DNA of 64,000 nucleotides from contig JAGHUP010000009.1 in assembly GCA_018064755.1 (NCBI GenBank), forward strand, positions 5,701-69,700, written 5' to 3'. This stretch comes from Candidatus Crickella equi (GTDB taxonomy: Bacteria; Bacillota; Clostridia; Peptostreptococcales; Anaerovoracaceae). Each line of letters opens with the position of its first letter. Positions within the stretch are counted from its first letter, which is position 1. Both the position numbers and the translations under genes were made by a program. Positions 1,572 through 49,277 of this stretch are shown one piece after another. The notes under the pieces were generated by a model. That model ran no database searches and was not told the origin of the DNA. It saw only the letters and a list, made by a program, of their open reading frames with translations.

Positions 1572-2063
1572 CTACTTTCTCCAGCCGAGCTGTTCTATGT
1601 AAGGTTCTAACGAACGTCTAAGTATCTGGCCGAATAAACCAGCAGCAATCAATTCACCTACGAAAACTGTAACGGTGAAATACGCTACCGAGCCTTCGAA
1701 GTTGTACACCAAGGCCAAAACCCACGGTATTATCAGCGTGTTTGCGATAATCGGTGGCAAGCTTGCGAGGACTTTGTGGTTAGCAAGACGCTTTGTTAGA
1801 AGCGCGCCAACAAGTGTAGCTACTGTTCCACAAATAACATCCATCGGTGCACAACCTGTAATAATGTTAGAAACAAGACATCCAACACACAATCCAGGAA
1901 CTGCAGCAGGTGTAAATATAGGCAATATCGTCATTGCTTCAGATAATCTAATCTGTATTATTCCACTTGCAAGACCCAGCAGGTTGGATACCAGTGTTAG
2001 CACAATATAAAGCGCAGCAATAAGTGCTCCCTGCGCAATATTATTTGTTCTATTATTCATCAT
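1572..2063 (-). CDS. queT: queuosine precursor transporter QueT
   Basis: 163-aa multi-TM protein with QueT-like sequence (IQIRLSEAMTILPIF..), sitting directly behind a preQ1 riboswitch. Confidence 0.8.
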   Translation of the reverse strand: MMNNRTNNIAQGALIAALYIVLTLVSNLLGLASGIIQIRLSEAMTILPIFTPAAVPGLCVGCLVSNIITGCAPMDVICGTVATLVGALLTKRLANHKVLASLPPIIANTLIIPWVLALVYNFEGSVAYFTVTVFVGELIAAGLFGQILRRSLEPYIEQLGWRK

Positions 2064-2065
2064 AG

Positions 2066-2107
2066 CTCCTTAGTTTTGTTTTACGTGAGGATGGTTACGA
2101 ACTCACG
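2066..2107 (-). promoter_or_regulatory. preQ1-I riboswitch sequestering the queT Shine-Dalgarno
   Basis: Reverse strand CGUGAG-UUCGUAACCAUC-CUCACG-UAAAACAAAACUAAGGAG. This is a P1 hairpin plus an A-rich tail ending in CUAAGG, very close to the Bacillus/Thermoanaerobacter preQ1-I aptamers recalled from the literature. Confidence 0.8.
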
Positions 2108-2115
2108 AAATTAGT

Positions 2116-2207
2116 TGGCGGAGAGAGGGGGATTTGAACCCCCGCGACGGTATTACCGCCCTACCGGTATTCGAAGCCGGACCCTTCAGCCACTTGGGTA
2201 CCTCTCC
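2116..2207 (-). tRNA. tRNA-Ser (anticodon CGA)
   Basis: Reverse strand GGAGAGG..CCGGC-TTCGAAT-ACCGG..long variable arm..GGGGGTTCAAATCCCCC-TCTCTCC-G-CCA. Cloverleaf with long extra arm and encoded CCA. Confidence 0.9.
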
Positions 2208-2238
2208 ATATTGACGCCGTCAAGATTGACGGCGAGTT

Positions 2239-3588
2239 TTATTGTAGCATATTATTGCTTCTTTCTCTAGCCCTCTTCTCACGAAGTGCTGCAAGTCTCT
2301 TCTCGCGTTGTTTCCTATTATATCTGCGTATCAGCATCAGCGCTGTGGCAAGAACCACAATTGTCATTACAAGAATAATTCCAACCTTGTCTGAAATATA
2401 GATATTAGACAGAATCATACCTGTCTGAACATCCTCAGCCAGCATCACATTACGCTTAGCAACTAACTTCCTGCTGACATAGACCTCATAAGTTCCAACC
2501 TTGGTGCCCTTCTTAAGAGGAGCCTTGACCTTGTCATAGTGAATCTTTACCCTGACTTTGCCCTTTCGCATTTTCTTAGGATAAGCGTGGACTCTTTTCT
2601 CAAGGATGGTCTTTACATGAGTATGCTTTCCGTGTTTAACCCACACTTTACCGGTATCTGCTCCAGCTTCATCTACCACATATCCTGGTGTTACCTTGTG
2701 TGCAAATTTGAGTAAGTTCTCTACGTCTTCTTCTCTGCCTTCGTCAGTATCTTTCAGCAAGATTAGAATAGCAGTAAGTTCATTCTTATTATATTCAAGA
2801 GCTACTGAGCAATCGCTTGTACTCCAGAATCCACTCTTGCCGCCGAGCACTCCGGATTTCTTTTTGTCGGTCAGAGTGATATGAGTCTTCATCTTACGTG
2901 CCTCGAACTTGTTAGTTTTAGGCATTTTGTACTTTCTTGTAGTCGCAATCTTATGAAGATACTCATCATCGAACACATGCTGTGTAATAGTCAGAAGATC
3001 GTTAGCCGTCGTATAGTGATCAGCTGCCTTCCATCCTGTCGGATTAACAAAATGAGTATTCTTACAGCCCCAGTCAGCGACTGTGTCGTTCATTTCATCT
3101 ACGAAGGCGTCAATATCTCCATCGCAAGTGGCTTCAGCTAGAGCTGTTGCTGCATCATTACCAGACAATATCATAGCTCCATGGAGAAGTTGATCTACAG
3201 TTACCTTCTCCCCTGGGACCAACTTCATAGTTGAACCCTCGGAACTATCATTGGCAGCCCTCTTGGATATCACAACCACTTCATCCTTATCCAACTCCTG
3301 TGTAGCAACATAACAAGTTACTAGCTTGGTAATACTATATGGTGCATACTGAGTATCTGCATTTTTGCTGTATACAACCTGGTCGAGGTCCTCTGAATAG
3401 AGAACAGCAGCCTTAGCTCTAATATCCGGAGCTTTCGCATTTATATCACCACAAGGTATCATTTCTCCCTTGTGACCTGAAGTAAAGATAATAAAAAGTA
3501 GCACTATAATAAGGAGCAACCCTATAATGATTGCCCTCATCTTTATTCTGTTAGACTTCTTGTAATTACTTTCCTTACTTCTTGCCAT
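2239..3588 (-). CDS. D-alanyl-D-alanine carboxypeptidase (PBP5/6-type serine peptidase) with C-terminal membrane anchor
   Basis: SITK (SxxK), SGN and KSG motifs, N-terminal TM segment, C-terminal TM plus basic tail. Confidence 0.8.
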   Translation of the reverse strand: MARSKESNYKKSNRIKMRAIIIGLLLIIVLLFIIFTSGHKGEMIPCGDINAKAPDIRAKAAVLYSEDLDQVVYSKNADTQYAPYSITKLVTCYVATQELDKDEVVVISKRAANDSSEGSTMKLVPGEKVTVDQLLHGAMILSGNDAATALAEATCDGDIDAFVDEMNDTVADWGCKNTHFVNPTGWKAADHYTTANDLLTITQHVFDDEYLHKIATTRKYKMPKTNKFEARKMKTHITLTDKKKSGVLGGKSGFWSTSDCSVALEYNKNELTAILILLKDTDEGREEDVENLLKFAHKVTPGYVVDEAGADTGKVWVKHGKHTHVKTILEKRVHAYPKKMRKGKVRVKIHYDKVKAPLKKGTKVGTYEVYVSRKLVAKRNVMLAEDVQTGMILSNIYISDKVGIILVMTIVVLATALMLIRRYNRKQREKRLAALREKRARERSNNMLQ

Positions 3589-29247: not shown

Positions 29248-30595
29248 ATTTCGTACTGAGCGACTTCTTCGAAGTCCATGCTGAGTAGTAGTCAACACCT
29301 TCTACAGTCTTATATGTTCTTACCCTCACGTAATACTTTGTTTTGCGCTTGAGCTTGGTCAATTTCTTGCTGACCTTGTCGCAATCTGACACCCTAATTA
29401 TGCTTGTTGAGCCCTTGTTAAATGCACGCTTAGTTCCGTATTCAAGTTCATATCCCTTGACACCATATTGCTGTTTCGTCCATTTAACAGTAATGTAGTT
29501 CTTACCGGATTTCAGCTTGCTGATGCTAGTCTTCTTGAGCACCTTAACAATAGGAATGACTTCTCCCTGCTCATCACTGCTTGGCACATACCGGCTAGCA
29601 GCAACAGGATGATTCTTGATGTAGTCATAAATATGATAATACTTGTCATGTCCCAAGAAATCGCTATTGCCCTTGAGGAAATACAAGTACTGTCCGCTGG
29701 TGTTATTAGAAGTCGACTCCCAGGTCGTATCACCATAATAGTAATCGCCATTGAGCTTGATTAAGTTCCACGCGTGACCCTCTTCAGCTATACTGCTGCC
29801 TTGATCAGCGGCTACAATTCTGCAATCAATTCCGCACTCCAGGAGCATTCTATACATCAGCAGCGAATATCCCTGACATACAGCGGTGCCCTTGCACAGA
29901 GCTTTCCATGCAGTAAATGACTTAAACTCTCTGTTCCTCAATCCCGCATAGTCATACGAAATATTGTTTGCAATATAATCATATATTGCCCGAACAGTTG
30001 CATACTCACCCTTTCCTTCCAGGTTCATCCTACTTAGCACTTCATCTATCTTAGTTCCCACCGCAGCCTCTTGCTTGGCCGTCGTGTAGTAAACAAAATG
30101 AACACTGAAGTAATAAGTATGATCACGGTCCGATTTATTTGGATCCGTAGCAGACCAGTCATATTTCGAATACTGCCATCTGAGATACTCACCCTCGCAA
30201 GGATCCCCAGTGTGCTCGAATGCTTTCTCGCAGCTCTCATCTAGCAACTTGGTCGCATTCGCCGTATTGGCCGCAGCAGCGCTCTTGAAAGTGTATCTGA
30301 ACCGCACCGTCGTTCTCTTCTTCATCGCGCTACGGAATACTTTGGCACAGCTGTCAGTTGTAGTAACCTTGGGATAATCTTTATCTCTGTATTTGCTTGA
30401 CGAAGCAGCAAGAAGAGGCATCTCACCTCCACCGTCACCAACCGCCGGCATGCCATTCAGCACGTCCTCATACAATGGATTAACAACCGTTCCGGAGAGT
30501 ACCGATTCTCCATCGTCCGCCCAACACGAAACAGGCAGCATAGCTACCACAAGGAATGCAGATATTAATAATGAAACAATTCTATTCTTTCTCAT
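29246..30595 (-). CDS. secreted transglutaminase-like cysteine peptidase domain protein with C-terminal Fn3-like domain
   Basis: Signal peptide. Transglutaminase core GTAVCQGYSLLMY..EGHAWNLIKL..YGDTTW (Cys-His-Asp). Confidence 0.75.
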   Translation of the reverse strand: MRKNRIVSLLISAFLVVAMLPVSCWADDGESVLSGTVVNPLYEDVLNGMPAVGDGGGEMPLLAASSSKYRDKDYPKVTTTDSCAKVFRSAMKKRTTVRFRYTFKSAAAANTANATKLLDESCEKAFEHTGDPCEGEYLRWQYSKYDWSATDPNKSDRDHTYYFSVHFVYYTTAKQEAAVGTKIDEVLSRMNLEGKGEYATVRAIYDYIANNISYDYAGLRNREFKSFTAWKALCKGTAVCQGYSLLMYRMLLECGIDCRIVAADQGSSIAEEGHAWNLIKLNGDYYYGDTTWESTSNNTSGQYLYFLKGNSDFLGHDKYYHIYDYIKNHPVAASRYVPSSDEQGEVIPIVKVLKKTSISKLKSGKNYITVKWTKQQYGVKGYELEYGTKRAFNKGSTSIIRVSDCDKVSKKLTKLKRKTKYYVRVRTYKTVEGVDYYSAWTSKKSLSTK

Positions 30596-30604
30596 CCCTA
30601 TTTA

Positions 30605-31339
30605 TCAGTTATTCTTTTCTTCAGACTTCTTTTTAACAAGAGCATCCACAACTTCCTTTATATTGGATTGGTTTACTACAACGTCAGGATAAGTCTCTTC
30701 GAATTCTATCAACGCCTGCTTGTTATCAATTTCCTGTTGTCTGATTTCCTTATACTTGTCTACATAGTCTTCTTTCTCGAAAAGGTCCGTAACAAACCCG
30801 CGCATCTCCTTTGATATATAATCCCAATCACCATATAGATTTTCGGTCGCTTGTTTAACCCCTTCAAGCGTCAGTGGTTTTCCTGACAATTTATGCTCCG
30901 CTAACACACCAACAATATCCGAAAGATCATTCTTATATTTTCTTCCTGATACCAGTTTCATAGCAACCAGGTATTCCGCCTTAACCGTATATACTGAAAC
31001 AACGTTAGCGAAAGTCTTGTAATGCATAGCATATTGCCTGAGTTTTGGTGTATATGATGTAGTATTTTTAAAATGTGTATTGAGCCACTCCAATGGCAGC
31101 CCATATTTATCTCCTACGTAATTTATAGATTCCTTCATCGCCGATGAAACCTCATACATAGCATCAATGTCTGTCGTCATCTGACGAAAATCGTAGTTCA
31201 ACAATACTGATGCACCGCCTATCAATATAAGTTCAGCCTTGACCTTCTTGCCCGTTCTTTTTCTAAAATCCTTGGCAACTTCCTTAATGTAGGTGTCTAT
31301 ATTCTCTCTCGTAAATTCAAATGTAATGCTAGATGACAT
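30605..31339 (-). CDS. DUF6036/MNT-like nucleotidyltransferase-fold protein
   Basis: ELILIGGASVLLNYDFRQMTTDIDAMY fits the Pol-beta NTase hG[GS]..D.D signature. 11-nt overlap with the upstream XRE gene. Confidence 0.6.
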   Translation of the reverse strand: MSSSITFEFTRENIDTYIKEVAKDFRKRTGKKVKAELILIGGASVLLNYDFRQMTTDIDAMYEVSSAMKESINYVGDKYGLPLEWLNTHFKNTTSYTPKLRQYAMHYKTFANVVSVYTVKAEYLVAMKLVSGRKYKNDLSDIVGVLAEHKLSGKPLTLEGVKQATENLYGDWDYISKEMRGFVTDLFEKEDYVDKYKEIRQQEIDNKQALIEFEETYPDVVVNQSNIKEVVDALVKKKSEEKNN

Positions 31340-31889
31340 TTCCTATCTCCGTCTCAACAATATTGAATCTTAAAAACTCCGGTATTGCTTTCTTAATTGC
31401 TTCCTGTTTAGCCTTCTCAGTACCCAATGCAATCACTCCAGCAGGGAATACCATATGCTCAATTTTGCTCTTTCTCATTGCATCATAATCATTGCAAAGA
31501 GGTATCTTATTCTGCCGACTTAAGTAATCTATCAATGCCAATAAATACAGCGCCTCCAAATACCATTGCCACTGCCACATTGTGCGAATTATTTCATTCT
31601 GAATGGTACTCAATATAAATTCATAGCTACCCTCACGTTGAAGGTCGTGTTGCATCTGGCTCTTAAAGTTCTCGAATGATGGTCTCTCCGGTATATGCAT
31701 CTTGGAATACAGTTCATCCATTGAAATATCCAGCACACTCGCCAACTTATGTGCCGTCTCAAAAGACGCCTTCTCAATTGCCGTCTTTCCATTCACAATG
31801 TCAGAAAGTGTCGAATATGGAATGCCGCTTCTCTTGGAGCATTCATATATTGTGAGATTCTTTTCTTCGAGCAGGAAACTGTAATTCAT
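31329..31889 (-). CDS. XRE-family HTH regulator with uncharacterised C-terminal domain
   Basis: LTIYECSKRSGIPYSTLSDIVNGKT HTH. Start taken at the third codon of the track ORF (ATG 31889) because GGAGGA then lies 7 nt upstream. Confidence 0.75.
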   Translation of the reverse strand: MNYSFLLEEKNLTIYECSKRSGIPYSTLSDIVNGKTAIEKASFETAHKLASVLDISMDELYSKMHIPERPSFENFKSQMQHDLQREGSYEFILSTIQNEIIRTMWQWQWYLEALYLLALIDYLSRQNKIPLCNDYDAMRKSKIEHMVFPAGVIALGTEKAKQEAIKKAIPEFLRFNIVETEIGNVI

Positions 31890-31919
31890 ATTCATTCCTC
31901 CGTTATGTCATGTAACTAC

Positions 31920-31948
31920 ATTATAACGGCACACCGTGATAGTTTCAA
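31920..31948 (-). promoter_or_regulatory. promoter of the XRE/NTase pair
   Basis: Reverse strand TTGAAA-17 nt-TATAAT, immediately downstream of the kinase gene stop. Confidence 0.65.
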
Positions 31949-31955
31949 GATTAAT

Positions 31956-33257
31956 CTATATACTCTTAAGATAATTAACTGTCTTGCGAATCCATTCGCA
32001 GCCATATTTCAGTCTATATCCGGTAAATCCCGCATCCACCAATGCGGCATAGATCTCATCGTCTGAAATACCAAGATTCAATATTCTAGCGAATGACACT
32101 CCGGTATTCGTAATGTCATTAACGTAGTCATAATATGTTCCGCTCGCACCCCAAGTCGTGGAGTACAGCTCTATATTATCGCACGCCTTCCTTGCCGTTT
32201 CCTCCGTGTCCTCATAGAATAGGCTACGGCCGTTATCATATAACGGATAGAAAGTCTCGCCTGTGGCATTTAACAATACCGCAACATTGGACAGATGCCT
32301 GTCATCCTGTCGGGTTATGAAGTCTAGAGCAATCATTTTGATAAAATCCAGCTGATACTGCGGTCTCTTGCTGAGCAGATTGTAATACTCATTCTCGCCT
32401 CTTTCTCCGTCCATGAACAGGCGACGAGCATGAACCAGGTATTCTTGACCCCAATCATACATAAATTCAGAGAAAACAGTATCCTCATCAATGCGATAAG
32501 CCGGGCAACAAGGTACTCCGAGCAACTTCGCGATGTTGTAAACAGCGACCTCTGATTCAACATCTCCGGATAACGGATGGAGTCTTGTTTTGTAAATGCC
32601 GTATCTGCCATTAAACACGCCATATCGCTTGATATTATTACCTTCCGGCGTGCTGATACTATCCCCCTCAAGGTCGGTCTTCTGAACAAACACCGCCCTG
32701 AACACCTCATCTATTGCATCGTCCATCTTGGCATCAGAACTATCTGCAATCCACAGTAAATCACGAGAATTGATAGCGTGTGTCTTAATGCCTATTCCAA
32801 TCGCATCATACGAATTAAGTCCGCACTTCACCAAAATCTTCTCTATATCACGTCGTTCACTGCTGACAATTCGTTCAGAAACGAATCTCTCGAAATCCGC
32901 TCTGCTCCAGCGACGTTCCCCATGCGTGTAGTTTGATACAGTTTGGTTATAATCCGGATTGCGCCATAACACATCGTAATTATCGTAGATGTCTCCTATC
33001 ACATCGTCCTGCCACTTCAGGTAATACTTAACCTGATCCGTTCCGTATTGAATATCCACAGACTCAGCAACAGCCAACTTATCAAGCCGCGCAGTCTTGT
33101 ACCTGCCATCAGCTGGTTTAACCGCATCACAAGGGATGAGGTAGGTGTCATTGCTACTGATAACCCCCTCAATTCGACCCGACTTGCACAAAGTCCTGAC
33201 ACGACGATCGCTAATATTCCATTTCTCAGCCATCTCGGCCGTAGTACAATATTTCAT
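31956..33257 (-). CDS. HipA-family Ser/Thr kinase with N-terminal excisionase/MerR-like HTH (YjjJ/HipH-like architecture)
   Basis: N-terminus TTAEMAEKWNISDRRVRTLCKSGRIEG (HTH). C-terminus FITRQDDRHLSNVAVL and PLYDNGRSL match the HipA catalytic D.H..N loop and the Mg-binding YD. No HipA N-terminal coupling domain is recognisable. Confidence 0.65.
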   Translation of the reverse strand: MKYCTTAEMAEKWNISDRRVRTLCKSGRIEGVISSNDTYLIPCDAVKPADGRYKTARLDKLAVAESVDIQYGTDQVKYYLKWQDDVIGDIYDNYDVLWRNPDYNQTVSNYTHGERRWSRADFERFVSERIVSSERRDIEKILVKCGLNSYDAIGIGIKTHAINSRDLLWIADSSDAKMDDAIDEVFRAVFVQKTDLEGDSISTPEGNNIKRYGVFNGRYGIYKTRLHPLSGDVESEVAVYNIAKLLGVPCCPAYRIDEDTVFSEFMYDWGQEYLVHARRLFMDGERGENEYYNLLSKRPQYQLDFIKMIALDFITRQDDRHLSNVAVLLNATGETFYPLYDNGRSLFYEDTEETARKACDNIELYSTTWGASGTYYDYVNDITNTGVSFARILNLGISDDEIYAALVDAGFTGYRLKYGCEWIRKTVNYLKSI

Positions 33258-33263
33258 ATTTCG

Positions 33264-33306
33264 AGTATAAAATAAATGCGGAACAATATCAAGATATTGT
33301 TCCGCA
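33264..33306 (-). promoter_or_regulatory. promoter with overlapping 30-bp perfect palindrome, apparently leaderless
   Basis: Reverse strand TTGATA (33292-33287)-17 nt-TATACT (33269-33264), with only 6 nt to the ATG at 33257 and no SD. The palindrome TGCGGAACAATATC-AA-GATATTGTTCCGCA (33277-33306) covers the -35. Confidence 0.55.
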
Positions 33307-33736
33307 CATTATTCCGCATAATTTATCGACAGTCAAGTTATAGTAGGGTTGAGAACGCTAAAACACAACTTCATTGAGGACCAAGATTAGGTTTTGTCGC
33401 TATGTGACGACTCACGCCCAAAGTACATGCTTTTTCAGCTCGCCACTCCTGCGATTTGTCGCTATGCCGACCCCTCGCGCCAAAAAACCATCATCAATTC
33501 CGGGCAAACTACCGGAATCAGTGATGTACTTTTATTACATGATTCTATATAGCGACAAAAGTCGCGTTCGCTCTCGATAAAAATAATGCACTTTTCTCAC
33601 CTCTACTCGTATAGCGATACAACACAATAAGCAAAGAACGGAATTACCCTAAAAATTACGAGGAACCGGCGAACCGACTCCTTGCAGAATTAATAAATCT
33701 TCTTATACCAATTAAACGTATCTGTTTTGTAAAAAA

Positions 33737-34612
33737 CTATATACCGCTACAAATTTCATTAAATAAATCTTTTCCCGTCAGCAGTTCCTTTAGAGACGAT
33801 TTGTCTAAAACAGCAACATGTTTCTCCTGTAGAAACAATTTAGTCTCTTTTGTCTCATATGTTGAATCAACTATAAGCACAAAGTATAACCCTTTATTTT
33901 CAATATGATCTATTTCATTAATGAAGTTTACTACATCACTTTTATTTATATATCTTCCCGAATAATGTCTAATTTTAATAAGATATTTTACTCCATCTTT
34001 CTCTGCCAATATTGTATCCTCATTTTCTTTTTTTGTTAAATATCCCAAATCATTTAATAGCATGATATAAAAATCTCCTATATCAGCTATATTACAAATA
34101 TCAGTCACCAGATTCGAAAGATTATCAAACGGCACTTTTATCACGGCCGTATATTTTGACAGATTCGAATTGTTATCCAACACCATATCGAAACCTATAA
34201 ATATACCCCTGACAATGTTAAAACGACCATGCGCAATACAATTCCTTAAGTGTCGTAAAAACTCTTGTATTGTTATTCTTTTCTTTGATTTCGAAAAAAC
34301 AAGCTTCGTACAATTCAAGCATATTTCTTCTTCATAAAACTCAACATCATTTTTTGATAAGCCAGCGCTATCTGTAACAATCTTTACGTCATCTTCAGTA
34401 ACAGACAGCTTTTCCATAAGAAGTTTCATCAAATAGTCGCTATATGTATCTATGGAAAAAATAGTATTGCAATTTGCCTGTATTGAATGTGTTTCAGGCA
34501 GTCTCCACAAACAATTTAGGAGCAAGTTATTTGTTTCATTGTCAAAGCAACCGTCATGAAAAATGTTATATTCATATTTGTTTGGATTTTTACAGCAATA
34601 CTGAAAACTCAT
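33737..34612 (-). CDS. HEPN-like (RNxxAH) domain fused to a Mrr-type restriction-endonuclease-like C-terminal domain
   Basis: EFLRHLRNCIAHGRF is an Rx4H HEPN-type motif as in the AbiD/F (Abi_2) family. The C-terminus YLIKIRHYSGRYINKSDVVNFINEI..GLYFVLIVDSTY..HVAVLDKSSLKELL follows the Mrr_cat layout but has K-I-R where Q/E-x-K is expected. Very AT-rich gene. Start placed at MSFQYCC (GGAGGGG SD) instead of the track's TTG start at 34642. Confidence 0.5.
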   Translation of the reverse strand: MSFQYCCKNPNKYEYNIFHDGCFDNETNNLLLNCLWRLPETHSIQANCNTIFSIDTYSDYLMKLLMEKLSVTEDDVKIVTDSAGLSKNDVEFYEEEICLNCTKLVFSKSKKRITIQEFLRHLRNCIAHGRFNIVRGIFIGFDMVLDNNSNLSKYTAVIKVPFDNLSNLVTDICNIADIGDFYIMLLNDLGYLTKKENEDTILAEKDGVKYLIKIRHYSGRYINKSDVVNFINEIDHIENKGLYFVLIVDSTYETKETKLFLQEKHVAVLDKSSLKELLTGKDLFNEICSGI

Positions 34613-34807
34613 TTTAACCCATCCCCTCCGTTTCCTGAACAATGACGTATAATACTATATAGCAAAACTCGTAAATTGTTATTCATAAATAGCTCCATAA
34701 GTTAATTTGGAATAATTCCAGCAGCCCCCAACATTCGCCCCCAAATTAATTTGGATAAACCCCAAAATTATTTGATGAGCCATTTTCCTTTCCTTCGCCG
34801 AATAGCC

Positions 34808-34836
34808 AAAGACAGGGCCATCACAGCCCTGTCCTT
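34808..34836 (-). terminator. probable terminator after the surface-protein gene
   Basis: Reverse strand AAGGACAGGGC-7 nt-GCCCTGTCTTT followed by a short T-poor tail. Confidence 0.45.
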
Positions 34837-34891
34837 GATTGGTTTGATATGATAATCACCTTGCGATGATTAATGACTCACATTGGTTAAA

Positions 34892-36562
34892 TTACTTCTT
34901 AACCTTTACAGTGATGCTCTGAGTCTCGGATGCAGCACCATAGCCCAATCCAGCCTGAACATAAGCCTTAACCTTGATCTTGTAAGTTCCCTTCTTCAGA
35001 CCCTTCTTAAGAGTGATCTTTCCGGAAGCCTTATCAATCTTAATCTTGCTGTTAGCGTTGATCAGCTTGTAGCTTACTGCAGCGCCTGAGAGAGCCTCAG
35101 CCTTAACTGTGAAGGACTTAGCAGCCTTCTTAAGCTTCTTTGCCTTGAAAGTCTTGCTGGATGGAGCTGATGTGAACTCAACTTCATTTACAAGCTTTCC
35201 ATCAACAATGTGAAGGGTAGCATCAGCGTTGTCAAGTTCAACAGTTACATTTGCTTCAAGAGCTTTCCACTTTTTAGCGAGAGCTGCTGTCTCTTCAGAA
35301 GTTAAATCGCTCTTAATTGCAATAGCAAGATTTACATCATCAGTGTATGCTACAGGGGTAGCTGTTACGTCGTAGTTATCGGAAATGTATTCTGCAACCT
35401 CTGCCTTATGAGCATCGATAAACGCCTGAACTTTCTTGTCTGGGTTTGTGGCCTTTACAAAATCCATTGCTGTATAAGCCTGTCCTCTTACTACCTTTGG
35501 AGCATCAGATTCAAATCCGAATGTAACTACTGCCTTATTTACGTCTACTGTCAGAATATAAGGTGTAGGTGTCTGCTTATCAGCAGATACTGTAGCTTCA
35601 AACTTATAAGGCTCAGTAGGCTTATTCACAGTCTGGAACTTAGGTGCATCAACAGCCTCATATTTTCCAGCCTTGTAATTATACTGCTTCCAAGTTACTG
35701 ACAGACCCTCGAGTTCCTTCATAACGATTGTGTGCTCAGAGCCATCAAATGTAACCTGACTGTCCTTTCCTTCTTTCATTACATCGTCAATTGATGTAAC
35801 AGCATCAACCCAGAACAAAGCTTCGTTTGTCTTTGGAACCGACTTAGCAACTGTGAAATTCTTTGATACAGATCCAACGAGATCAGGCTGGTCTTTGTCT
35901 CCAAGATCAATAGCCTTCTTTGCAGCGAAAATTACTGGAACTGTGAATTCCTGCTCTGCATAAGAAGCGTCATCATAATCTTCAGGAAGTGTAAGACTGA
36001 AGTTCCAATTATCAATAGTATTTTTTGCACCATGACCGTAATTAGCACTTACCCTTACAATTTTGTTATTAGTGATAGTCTTATCCTGCTCAACATAAGA
36101 TGGAGCAACTAACTCTAATCCAGTATAGGCATATGTACCGCTCGCAAAGATACCTTTAAAGTCACTCTTGTTAAACTTTGTTGGCATAGCTGATGTGTTC
36201 TTCAGCTCACTTTGTAACACTTCACCGCCATACTGAAGCGTAGCACCATCTACGTCATAAAAATATGCCTTCAGGCTCTCCATTGCAGCCTTGACGTTTG
36301 AATCCATAGTAGTATCTGCTGCAATTTCAGCTGCATTAGGAACAGCCTGGATAGTACCATTCCACTTTGTGTTGTCACCTGTTTTTGTAACCAGTGTTCT
36401 AACAGTATTAACTGTAGCTGATTCAGTACCAACAGTTACAGTAACTGTTGCATACTTCTCGCCCCATGTTACAACAGGCTCAGCTGTTGCGAATGCCATT
36501 GCTGGCATGAATGTTACCATCATCATTGCAGACATGAGGATAGCAAATAATTTCTTGCGCAT
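34892..36562 (-). CDS. secreted protein with C-terminal bacterial Ig-like (Big_2-like) domain
   Basis: Signal peptide MRKKLFAILMSAMMMVTFMPAMAFA. C-terminus ..AVSYKLINANSKIKIDKASGKITLKKGLKKGTYKIKVKAYV is a typical Big_2 pattern. The remainder is not recognised. Confidence 0.5.
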   Translation of the reverse strand: MRKKLFAILMSAMMMVTFMPAMAFATAEPVVTWGEKYATVTVTVGTESATVNTVRTLVTKTGDNTKWNGTIQAVPNAAEIAADTTMDSNVKAAMESLKAYFYDVDGATLQYGGEVLQSELKNTSAMPTKFNKSDFKGIFASGTYAYTGLELVAPSYVEQDKTITNNKIVRVSANYGHGAKNTIDNWNFSLTLPEDYDDASYAEQEFTVPVIFAAKKAIDLGDKDQPDLVGSVSKNFTVAKSVPKTNEALFWVDAVTSIDDVMKEGKDSQVTFDGSEHTIVMKELEGLSVTWKQYNYKAGKYEAVDAPKFQTVNKPTEPYKFEATVSADKQTPTPYILTVDVNKAVVTFGFESDAPKVVRGQAYTAMDFVKATNPDKKVQAFIDAHKAEVAEYISDNYDVTATPVAYTDDVNLAIAIKSDLTSEETAALAKKWKALEANVTVELDNADATLHIVDGKLVNEVEFTSAPSSKTFKAKKLKKAAKSFTVKAEALSGAAVSYKLINANSKIKIDKASGKITLKKGLKKGTYKIKVKAYVQAGLGYGAASETQSITVKVKK

Positions 36563-49189: not shown

Positions 49190-49277
49190 TGGCGGAGGAC
49201 ATGGGACTCGAACCCACGGGGCTGTTACACCTTACCTGATTTCCAATCAGGCTCCTTAGCCGCTCGGTCAATCCTCC
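49190..49277 (-). tRNA. tRNA-Ser (anticodon GGA)
   Basis: Reverse strand GGAGGAT..CCTGA-TTGGAAA-TCAGG..long variable arm..GTGGGTTCGAGTCCCAT-GTCCTCC-G-CCA. Confidence 0.9.

Follow-up and report, generated by a model that had tools for sequence, protein, structure and literature searches.

The window analysed here, a stretch of 64,000 nucleotides (nt) from a metagenome-assembled genome of Candidatus Crickella equi (Anaerovoracaceae, Clostridia; horse gut), contains four co-oriented genes, g1 to g4, which a previous sequence-only reading had proposed as a candidate composite defence or toxin system. The data presented below indicate that these genes are probably three independent conflict-type modules, which accumulated at one strain-variable site. 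The best reading, which we hold with good confidence, is that a solo HEPN effector (g1), a solo, self-repressed HipH-like kinase (g2), and a toxin–antitoxin-like pair of an XRE-type regulator and a DUF6036 protein (g3-g4) are stacked at an insertion hotspot. The exact proteins correspond to locus tags KBS56_04040 to KBS56_04055, three of which are annotated by NCBI as hypothetical proteins and one as a helix-turn-helix (HTH) regulator. The region and its genes are as follows.

30605-34642, minus strand: the region under study, with four co-oriented open reading frames (ORFs), g1, g2, g3 and g4
33737..34612, minus strand: g1, 291 amino acids (aa), with Cys4, HEPN, and a C-terminal PD-(D/E)xK-fold domain
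31956..33257, minus strand: g2, 433 aa, with an N-terminal HTH_17 domain (residues 1-50), followed by a linker, an N-domain rich in beta structure, and a Ser/Thr kinase core of the HipA/CtkA fold
31329..31895, minus strand: g3, 188 aa, with an XRE-type HTH (residues 1-65) and a conserved C-terminal domain of ~120 aa
30605..31339, minus strand: g4, 244 aa, a DUF6036 Pol-beta-fold nucleotidyltransferase

The co-occurrence of the four genes was followed in two samples. The first consisted of 80 loci of the kinase family, one per species, with 10-kb flanks each, in which the neighbouring proteins were clustered, while the second consisted of 80 metagenomic loci encoding g4 relatives. Homologues of g1 were absent from both samples (0/80 kinase-family loci and 0/80 DUF6036-family loci, 160 in total). 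Homologues of g3 and g4 were near the kinase in 1/80 loci (L015), where they were divergent, on the opposite strand. No conserved neighbour of the kinase was detected in the 80 species-level loci, the commonest being an unrelated ATPase, which was present in 10 loci at varying positions, and within 600 nt on either side of the kinase no small ORF (25-130 aa) was shared beyond near-identical genomes. On the other hand, a g3 homologue was located directly upstream of the g4 relative in 77/80 loci of the second sample, including 63/63 of those with at least 570 nt of upstream sequence, and the two genes usually overlapped by 11 nt, while the other neighbours of the DUF6036 loci all varied, some of them being recombinases or insertion sequence (IS) elements. 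These data show that g3 and g4 are an obligate pair, that g2 is a solo gene, and that g1 is unrelated to both. The sequence-only reading, which correctly noted the four co-oriented genes (four minus-strand ORFs, 30605-34612), had left the choice between one functional unit and three stacked modules. The former is refuted by the lack of co-occurrence in the kinase- and DUF6036-family loci, while the latter is supported by co-occurrence, by the history of the site, and by separate operators. It had also pointed to conserved co-localisation as a way to decide; unrelated neighbours were found for g1 and g2, whereas the obligate g3-g4 pair kept its arrangement.

The base composition of the four genes was compared with that of the 48 other genes of the window, which have a mean G+C fraction (GC) of 0.452 with a standard deviation of 0.027. 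The data showed that g1 (GC 0.306, z -5.4), g4 (GC 0.378, z -2.75), and g3 (GC 0.397, z -2.1) are poorer in GC than the reference genes, while g2 (GC 0.450, z -0.08) is indistinguishable from the flanks. Hence, the description of the whole cassette as AT-rich relative to its flanks holds for g1, g3 and g4, and it fails for g2. The contigs with close relatives of the kinase (L167 to L170) were syntenic with the window in blastn and tblastn comparisons. The order of genes in L169 and L170 is integrase, 545-aa protein, kinase, transglutaminase, GDH, 620-aa protein, UvrD, and LigA, with a kinase 65% identical to g2 and with neither g1 nor g3-g4 present. In L167 the kinase is 82% identical, and it is followed by g3, g4 and the transglutaminase gene, while the g1 position (1688-3127) is occupied by a ThsA_Macro protein together with RelB and ParE/YafQ. 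The L168 contig, which has 97% nucleotide identity to the window, contains a 150-aa ORF, different again, in the g1 position. As the GC z-scores and the syntenic relatives agree, the AT-rich cassette can be explained as a resident kinase flanked by two foreign insertions: g2 is ancestral at the site, and g3-g4 and g1 are AT-rich insertions.

The site is located just upstream of a conserved transglutaminase-GDH-UvrD-LigA block. As had been remarked from the sequence, the cassette begins 9 nt from the start codon of a secreted transglutaminase-like gene, the stop codon of g4 being at this distance from the ATG at 30595. In relatives without g3-g4 the stop codon of the kinase abuts the start of the secreted transglutaminase/fn3 gene (L169, 9278-9284). 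The transglutaminase gene is probably read through from whichever gene precedes it (the spacer in the window is 30596-30604). The linkage of the kinase and the transglutaminase was not seen outside the window clade in the 80 kinase-family loci. The variable part upstream of the kinase has the following extent.

33328..34978, no strand assigned: hypervariable slot of 1.65 kb, GC 0.353, which in the window holds g1 and an array of short boxes

The homology of the window to all syntenic relatives ends at ~33319-33327 and resumes at ~34979 (blastn and tblastn against L167-L170). The slot of L169 is ~420 bp long and has no called gene. This slot lies between a surface-protein gene and the kinase, as a small insertion hotspot for defence and toxin–antitoxin genes. 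The modules adjoin because the site is an insertion hotspot, and not because of a joint function. The locus is thus a clean natural example of a small hotspot with strain-variable cargo, which is a HEPN-REase (restriction endonuclease-like) protein, ThsA-Macro with RelBE, or nothing.

The kinase and the g3-g4 pair are each preceded by predicted control elements, which are located as follows.

33264..33306, minus strand: promoter and operator of g2, with a palindrome at 33277-33306, a -35 element at 33287-33292 and a -10 element at 33264-33269 (10/12 in the promoter scan)
31920..31948, minus strand: sigma-70 promoter and operator of g3-g4, with -35 TTGAAA and -10 TATAAT (11/12 in the promoter scan)

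The palindrome upstream of g2 is perfect, TGCGGAACAATATC-TT-GATATTGTTCCGCA, and overlaps the -35 element TTGATA. Over ~65 nt before the kinase ATG all five syntenic loci are near-identical, despite the fact that the identity of the proteins has dropped to 65%. An operator of the type CGGAAYAAT-N-ATTRTTCCG, placed over the -35 element within 150 nt upstream of the gene, was present in 63/69 kinase-family loci from several phyla, as compared to a background rate of 0.005 per 150 nt for this pattern. Because its own HTH_17 is the sole DNA-binding element conserved at kinase loci, self-repression of the kinase is the natural inference, and the HTH of g2 would bind the palindrome over the -35 element and repress g2. 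The -10 element TATACT is separated by 6 nt from the ATG at 33257, and a Shine-Dalgarno sequence is lacking; since the -10 element is so close to the start codon, a leaderless g2 mRNA is probable in the window clade. Most other members of the kinase family have a 25-45-nt leader with GGAGG, while the leaderless pattern is seen in the window, L167, L168 and L169.

The operator of the g3-g4 pair is an inverted repeat, ATCACGG-TGTG-CCGTTAT, which is located in the 17-nt spacer between the promoter elements and runs into the -10 element. The same layout of -35 element, inverted repeat and -10 element was present in 54/57 independent g3 loci, while it occurs once within the 64-kb window. The XRE HTH of g3 would repress the g3-g4 operon at this spacer palindrome. 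The g3-g4 and kinase operators differ in sequence, and two or more of the three modules carry their own predicted promoter and operator.

The assignment of g2 to the HipA-type kinases was supported by its fold and its catalytic residues. Pfam detected HTH_17 in residues 3-46 (E=3e-6), while HipA_C was sub-threshold (17.1 bits versus the cutoff of 30.5, E=0.0046). An AlphaFold2 (AF2) model of g2, built with 62 homologues, had a predicted local distance difference test score (pLDDT) of 83, and its best Foldseek match was Helicobacter pylori CtkA (E=1.8e-7, template modelling (TM) score 0.58-0.62), followed by HipA and HipT (E=1e-5 to 1e-3). The g2 protein contains a P-loop, T203-P-E-G-N-N-I-K210, a catalytic motif, D319-R-H321-L-S-N324, and a magnesium ligand, D341. 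Seven of these residues (G206, N208, K210, D319, H321, N324 and D341) are invariant in 62/62 aligned relatives, and T203 is conserved in at least 90% of them. The counterparts in Escherichia coli HipA are S150-VAGAQEK, D309-x-H-x-x-N (TDGHAKN), and D332 (FYD), with N replacing Q in the P-loop of g2. The HipA call for g2, as well as the HEPN call for g1 described below, hold although both are below the Pfam cutoffs, because they are supported by fold matches and catalytic motifs. A search of sequence profiles of the Protein Data Bank (PDB) with g2 returned no relatives. The PADLOC candidate PDC-M03 gave the sole notable PADLOC match, a partial one in which its component A aligned to residues 297-361 in the catalytic region of g2 (E=1e-10), short of full length; a weak match to its component B was located within g2 itself (E=0.016) and there is no separate gene for it.

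The g2 family has more than 1100 members, which are found in Clostridia, Coriobacteriia, Spirochaetes and Synergistaceae. The matches to g2 in plasmids and phages were partial, covering the HTH or the kinase core, and none was full-length. No conserved partner in the position of an adjacent HipB or HipS gene was detected in the 80 kinase-family loci, and g3 is adjacent just in the window clade and in L015. As judged from this architecture, g2 would be a one-gene toxin kinase similar to HipH (YjjJ), in which T203 of the P-loop is a likely autophosphorylation switch.

The g3-g4 pair has the anatomy generic to type II and type IV toxin–antitoxin systems, which is an obligate two-gene unit with the HTH gene first, coupled translation, and a predicted operator. 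The likelier start codon of g3 is the ATG at 31889, which gives a protein of 186 aa, is preceded by GGAGG at a distance of 7 nt, and agrees with the gene callers and with NCBI, in preference to the first ATG at 31895 (region 31887-31901). The ATG of g4 overlaps the stop codon of g3 by 11 nt (ATGTCATCTAG, 31329-31339), an arrangement of translational coupling. The HTH of g3 was matched in Pfam by HTH_3 (E=9e-9) and also by HTH_26, while its C-terminal domain had no family match, and the PDB sequence-profile search with g3 matched the HTH alone. The polar residues R71, E75, K78, H83, E114, D123, N129, E173, E181 and E183 are invariant in the C-terminal domain. The g4 protein was matched by Pfam DUF6036 (PF19502; E=2e-11, 44.4 bits versus the cutoff of 23.6), and its conserved residues are G41-G42...D57-x-D59 and the cluster K128...R133..K136.D138..D141. 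Its homologues carry the annotation of DUF6036 family nucleotidyltransferases, and the family comprises more than 1800 clusters at 90% identity. No phage record contained a match to g4, and the matches on plasmids were to distant DUF6036 proteins alone. On actinobacterial and Brevibacillus plasmids such distant DUF6036 genes are preceded by a small ORF, which abuts or overlaps them, and one of the distant plasmid genes sits among RES-Xre and PIN toxin–antitoxin genes.

The variation of the pair among the relatives provides further information on the roles of its two proteins. In L168 (2625-2845, corresponding to 29254-31296 of the window) deletions remove g4 after codon 19 together with the whole transglutaminase-like gene, and an intact orphan g3 now adjoins the GDH gene. 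That g4 was lost and g3 retained bears indirectly on the antitoxin and toxin polarity of the pair. In L167 residues 1-90 of g3 are 95% identical to the window copy, while the identity falls to 47% over residues 91-188 and is 45% for g4. The comparison of L167 with the window was the sole discordant pair among 1711 comparisons, and in no pair was g4 conserved and the C-terminal domain of g3 diverged, or vice versa. Because this recombination breakpoint in the middle of g3 is the sole discordance, the C-terminal domain of g3 travels with g4. In the mechanism that we propose the C-terminal domain of g3 would neutralise g4, so that g3 is the predicted antitoxin as well as the autorepressor. The g4 protein would be a growth-arresting nucleotidyltransferase similar to AbiEii and MenT, which would modify an RNA target such as tRNA 3′ ends. 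The AbiEii and MenT toxins block translation by adding nucleotides to the acceptor ends of tRNAs (PMC7450476). The proposed similarity of g4 to these toxins concerns the mode of action, as judged by analogy, and not family membership. Overall, the evidence leans towards the XRE-C-terminal domain (XRE-CTD)/DUF6036 pair being a new, widespread toxin–antitoxin or abortive-infection family of gut Clostridia, with a toxin outside DUF1814 and a novel antitoxin domain.

The remaining gene, g1, is likely a horizontally acquired solo effector. Four Cys residues (C6, C7, C98 and C101) vary little or not at all among 36 family members, and the HEPN motif of g1, R123-N-C-I-A-H128-G, corresponds to R-N-x-x-A-H-G in the family, in which R123 and H128 are invariant in 36/36 sequences and N124 is present in 34/36. 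The Pfam HEPN family pEK499_p136 matched g1 below threshold (E=0.003, 17.9 bits versus the cutoff of 26.6), and the AF2 model (pLDDT 71.7) was helical in the region of the HEPN motif. The Foldseek matches of the C-terminal domain were AF1548, Cdn1, MspJI, NucS and XisH (1y88, 8z4i, 4f0p, 2vld and 2inb; E=1e-4 to 6e-3), and the sequence profile of the family weakly matched Hjc resolvase (1gef) and AF1548 (1y88). The residues of the PD-(D/E)xK site are conserved across the family as D in 32/36, E/D in 28/36, and K in 30/36 sequences. The window copy has at the D...E-x-K site T200, adjoined by D199, and K213-I-R215, which departs from the consensus catalytic motif. Because K213-I-R215 replaces E-x-K, the nuclease site of g1 is probably degenerate, with the HEPN motif intact. 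The g1 protein would act as an RNase of the abortive infection (Abi) type, with the REase-like domain serving in sensing or binding. A full HMMER search gave a family size of 142 representatives at 50% identity, as compared to 4 from a word-indexed search. The scan of viral contigs with the family alignment found no homologue, and no linkage to restriction-modification genes was seen in the two short contigs that were sampled. On the short contig of the closest g1 homologue with context (44% identity; L171, 1-786), a co-oriented gene for a protein with a GIY-YIG nuclease domain precedes the homologue at a distance of 43 nt.

Two further elements are located between g1 and g2.

33661..33682, minus strand: terminator-like hairpin and T-run, 55 nt past the g1 stop codon (consensus scan)
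33386..33628, no strand assigned: array of four copies of a 12-mer of the TTTGTCGCTAT type, with a central hairpin at 33482-33533

The terminator-like hairpin suggests that g1 is its own transcription unit. The array is symmetric, as two direct copies are opposed to two inverted ones and the spacing within each pair is 62 nt. Exact ATAGCGACAA copies are at 33394, 33456 and 33549, a degenerate fourth copy is at 33610, and all of them are within the g1-g2 intergenic region. The occurrence of TATAGCGA at 34437-34444 falls inside the g1 ORF, and the sole match upstream of g1 (34655-34668) has 3 mismatches, which is at chance level. The sequence-only reading had placed related boxes upstream of both the HEPN gene and the kinase gene, and had taken them as a sign of a shared regulator. 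Neither proposal was supported, since all copies are in the g1-g2 spacer and none is upstream of g1, and since the boxes are strain-specific, while g2 and g3-g4 carry different family-wide operators; the array is no common operator of g1 and g2. The array was absent from every relative examined, save the identical Logan contig described below. No credible Rfam family was found for the array or the g1-g2 spacer, and the z value of -3.4 of the array RNA fold relative to shuffled sequences is expected of any inverted array. The box pair had four pattern matches in viral contigs, which were rejected because each was an unrelated repeat, either tandem or coding. The possibility of a type III antitoxin RNA was also rejected, because only the 12-mers repeat and not the 62-nt units, and because the array is downstream of g1, past the terminator-like site. 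The array could be a remnant similar to miniature inverted-repeat transposable elements (MITE), a set of protein-binding sites, or a structured RNA.

Several observations weigh against the reading of the locus as a solo effector, a solo kinase and a toxin–antitoxin pair. The genomic context of the g1 family was sampled from two short contigs, which leaves it nearly unsampled. The argument for the polarity of the pair consists of one deletion (L168) and one recombinant (L167). The g4 protein had no match to PF08843 (DUF1814) at E≤0.1, its link to AbiEii is a PADLOC match with E=0.03, which covers the N-terminal motifs at profile positions 12-65 alone, and the PDB sequence-profile search with g4 found no solved nucleotidyltransferase. 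Moreover, the vicinity of g3-g4 repeatedly contains HipA-like kinases, in several unrelated arrangements (the window clade, L015, L094, L115/L134, and L132/L137/L150).

An alternative explanation of the pair is that g3-g4 is not a toxin–antitoxin system, and that g4 is an XRE-regulated nucleotidyltransferase with a small-molecule or antibiotic, signalling, or defence role, the C-terminal domain of g3 being a ligand sensor or a second enzyme. The placement of g4 in DUF6036 and not in DUF1814, as well as the richness of the g3 C-terminal domain in invariant polar residues and its lack of a match to a known fold, are consistent with this explanation, and our literature search found no paper mentioning DUF6036. 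However, the 11-nt overlap with the HTH gene first and the predicted autoregulatory palindrome are typical of type II and type IV toxin–antitoxin systems, and the pair has a patchy, mobile distribution with variable neighbours. Additionally, g4 was lost with g3 kept, the C-terminal domain of g3 was swapped jointly with g4, and distant DUF6036 genes are located among plasmid toxin–antitoxin genes. In view of these data we consider a role of g3-g4 outside toxin–antitoxin biology unlikely.

The recurrence of kinases near the pair raises another explanation, in which g2, g3 and g4 form a functional triad with the kinase phosphorylating, or being controlled by, the XRE/nucleotidyltransferase pair. 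The g3-g4 pair follows g2 after 60 nt in the window clade (the window, L167 and L168), the kinase and g3-g4 lie side by side in divergent orientation in L015, and also in L094, where the g2-type kinase is truncated, and other HipA_C-type kinases are located 0.3-0.7 kb downstream of g4 in L115/L134 and L132/L137/L150. It is also consistent with such a link that phosphorylation regulates MenT and AbiEii toxins, as is reported in two papers (PMC11375011; bioRxiv 10.64898/2026.01.19.700257). On the other hand, g3-g4 is missing in 79/80 kinase loci, 74/80 g4 loci have no kinase match, L169 and L170 carry the kinase without the pair, and the predicted promoters and operators are independent. The orientation, distance and kinase family differ among the cases, and HicAB-like genes, recombinases and IS elements are likewise present in the loci with a kinase and the pair, in agreement with clustering in toxin–antitoxin islands or mobile elements. 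Because of these differences and these neighbours, the recurrence of the kinases is better read as the clustering of toxin–antitoxin genes in islands, and a functional triad appears very unlikely. Equally poor prospects are assigned to the combined proposal of a new XRE-CTD/DUF6036 family with a functional link between the kinase and the nucleotidyltransferase, for example trans-phosphorylation akin to the auto-phosphorylation of MenT and AbiEii. Kinases of several families within ~1 kb of XRE/DUF6036 pairs or nucleotidyltransferase fragments were observed at L094:3354-3839, L115:7049-8299, L137:4111-5298, L015:2864-4099, and L177:2821-4730, and on a Clostridium butyricum megaplasmid nucleotidyltransferase fragments come after a short gene with a HipA domain.

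A look-up of the exact g1, g2 and g4 proteins returned a single additional contig of identical sequence (the Logan contig L001), which has the same four-gene arrangement. The explanation that all four genes make up a composite defence or toxin system under a shared regulator, for which speak their co-orientation and tight packing, their conflict-type superfamilies, and the same arrangement in L001, is extremely improbable, as L001 is the same strain-level sequence with 100% nucleotide identity, g1 occurs in none of the 160 family loci and g3-g4 in a single kinase locus, the kinase of close relatives is accompanied by other genes, or by none, at the g1 position, the boxes are strain-specific and confined to the g1-g2 spacer, and the separate conserved operators and the terminator-like site after g1 point to separate units. 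Since the composite four-gene system does not exist, there is no new multi-gene defence system to claim here.

The scans of the four proteins against general collections agreed with these assignments. PADLOC matched no named defence system, in keeping with the earlier impression that the combination is not a named one. The superfamily assignments made from the sequence (HEPN, Mrr-like/REase, HipA kinase, Pol-beta nucleotidyltransferase, and XRE) proved correct by Pfam, fold matches and motifs. The NCBIfam scan of the four proteins added nothing, and the PHROGs scan gave nothing specific. Rfam at the gathering threshold returned two tRNAs and nothing else in the whole window. These are the tRNA-Ser genes at 2116-2207 and 49190-49277 (anticodons CGA and GGA), which are the sole Rfam and ARAGORN matches, and neither of them is near the cassette.

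The comparison with known systems places each module next to a different group. HEPN-REase fusions, such as the EC042_2821 and the DUF4145-REase architectures, and the pEK499_p136 HEPN family (Anantharaman et al. 2013), have been catalogued as effectors linked to Abi or restriction-modification (PMC3710099). By analogy, g1 fits these catalogued effectors, as it combines the HEPN Rx4H motif with an REase-fold domain and a Zn-ribbon-like Cys cluster, and stands alone in a variable slot of the defence type. It differs from them in being below the pEK499_p136 cutoff, in the small size of its family (142), and in having K213/R215 where the family has E-x-K. The presence of a HEPN protein (g1) and a nucleotidyltransferase (g4) within 4 kb is also reminiscent of the HEPN/MNT (HepT/MntA) systems. 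However, g1 and g4 are non-adjacent and never co-occur in the 160 loci, and g4, with its 244 aa, is not a minimal nucleotidyltransferase and has g3 as its obligate partner.

The g2 kinase resembles HipH (YjjJ) of E. coli K-12 in being monocistronic, in its N-terminal HTH joined to a HipA-type core, and in having no adjacent antitoxin gene. HipH is a monocistronic, HTH-fused Hip kinase, the control of which is listed as unknown (PMC8262856). With CtkA (JHP940) of Helicobacter pylori and with HipA and HipT, g2 shares the kinase fold, the P-loop [ST]xxGx[QN]xK, the DxHxxN motif, and the Mg-binding Asp. The g2 family differs from HipH in having no detectable sequence homology to it beyond the motifs (hhalign probability 0.3%, E=0.22), and the sequence relationship to HipA is also limited to motifs (hhalign probability <1%). 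The HTH of g2 is of the HTH_17 (MerR/excisionase) type, in contrast to that of HipH, and the g2 family has a palindromic operator over the -35 element, while none was found described for HipH in the literature consulted. The g2 family, which is large and consists of one-gene HipA-like kinases with a fused HTH and a palindromic operator throughout, thus offers a testable model for the control of solo Hip kinases such as HipH.

The XRE/DUF6036 pair is abundant in gut and rumen Clostridia, and it is a candidate for a new nucleotidyltransferase toxin–antitoxin family. Its closest counterpart in organisation is AbiE/MenAT (DUF1814), with which g3-g4 shares the two-gene operon with a DNA-binding, predicted antitoxin gene first and a Pol-beta-fold nucleotidyltransferase gene second (PMC7450476). 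The two also have in common an apparent autoregulation, a mobile, patchy distribution, and the GG...DxD residues of g4, which correspond to Pol-beta motifs I and II. Unlike the AbiE/MenAT systems, the pair has a nucleotidyltransferase from Pfam DUF6036 and not from DUF1814, and its regulator, g3, consists of an XRE HTH and a novel C-terminal domain in place of the COG5340 AbiEi protein.

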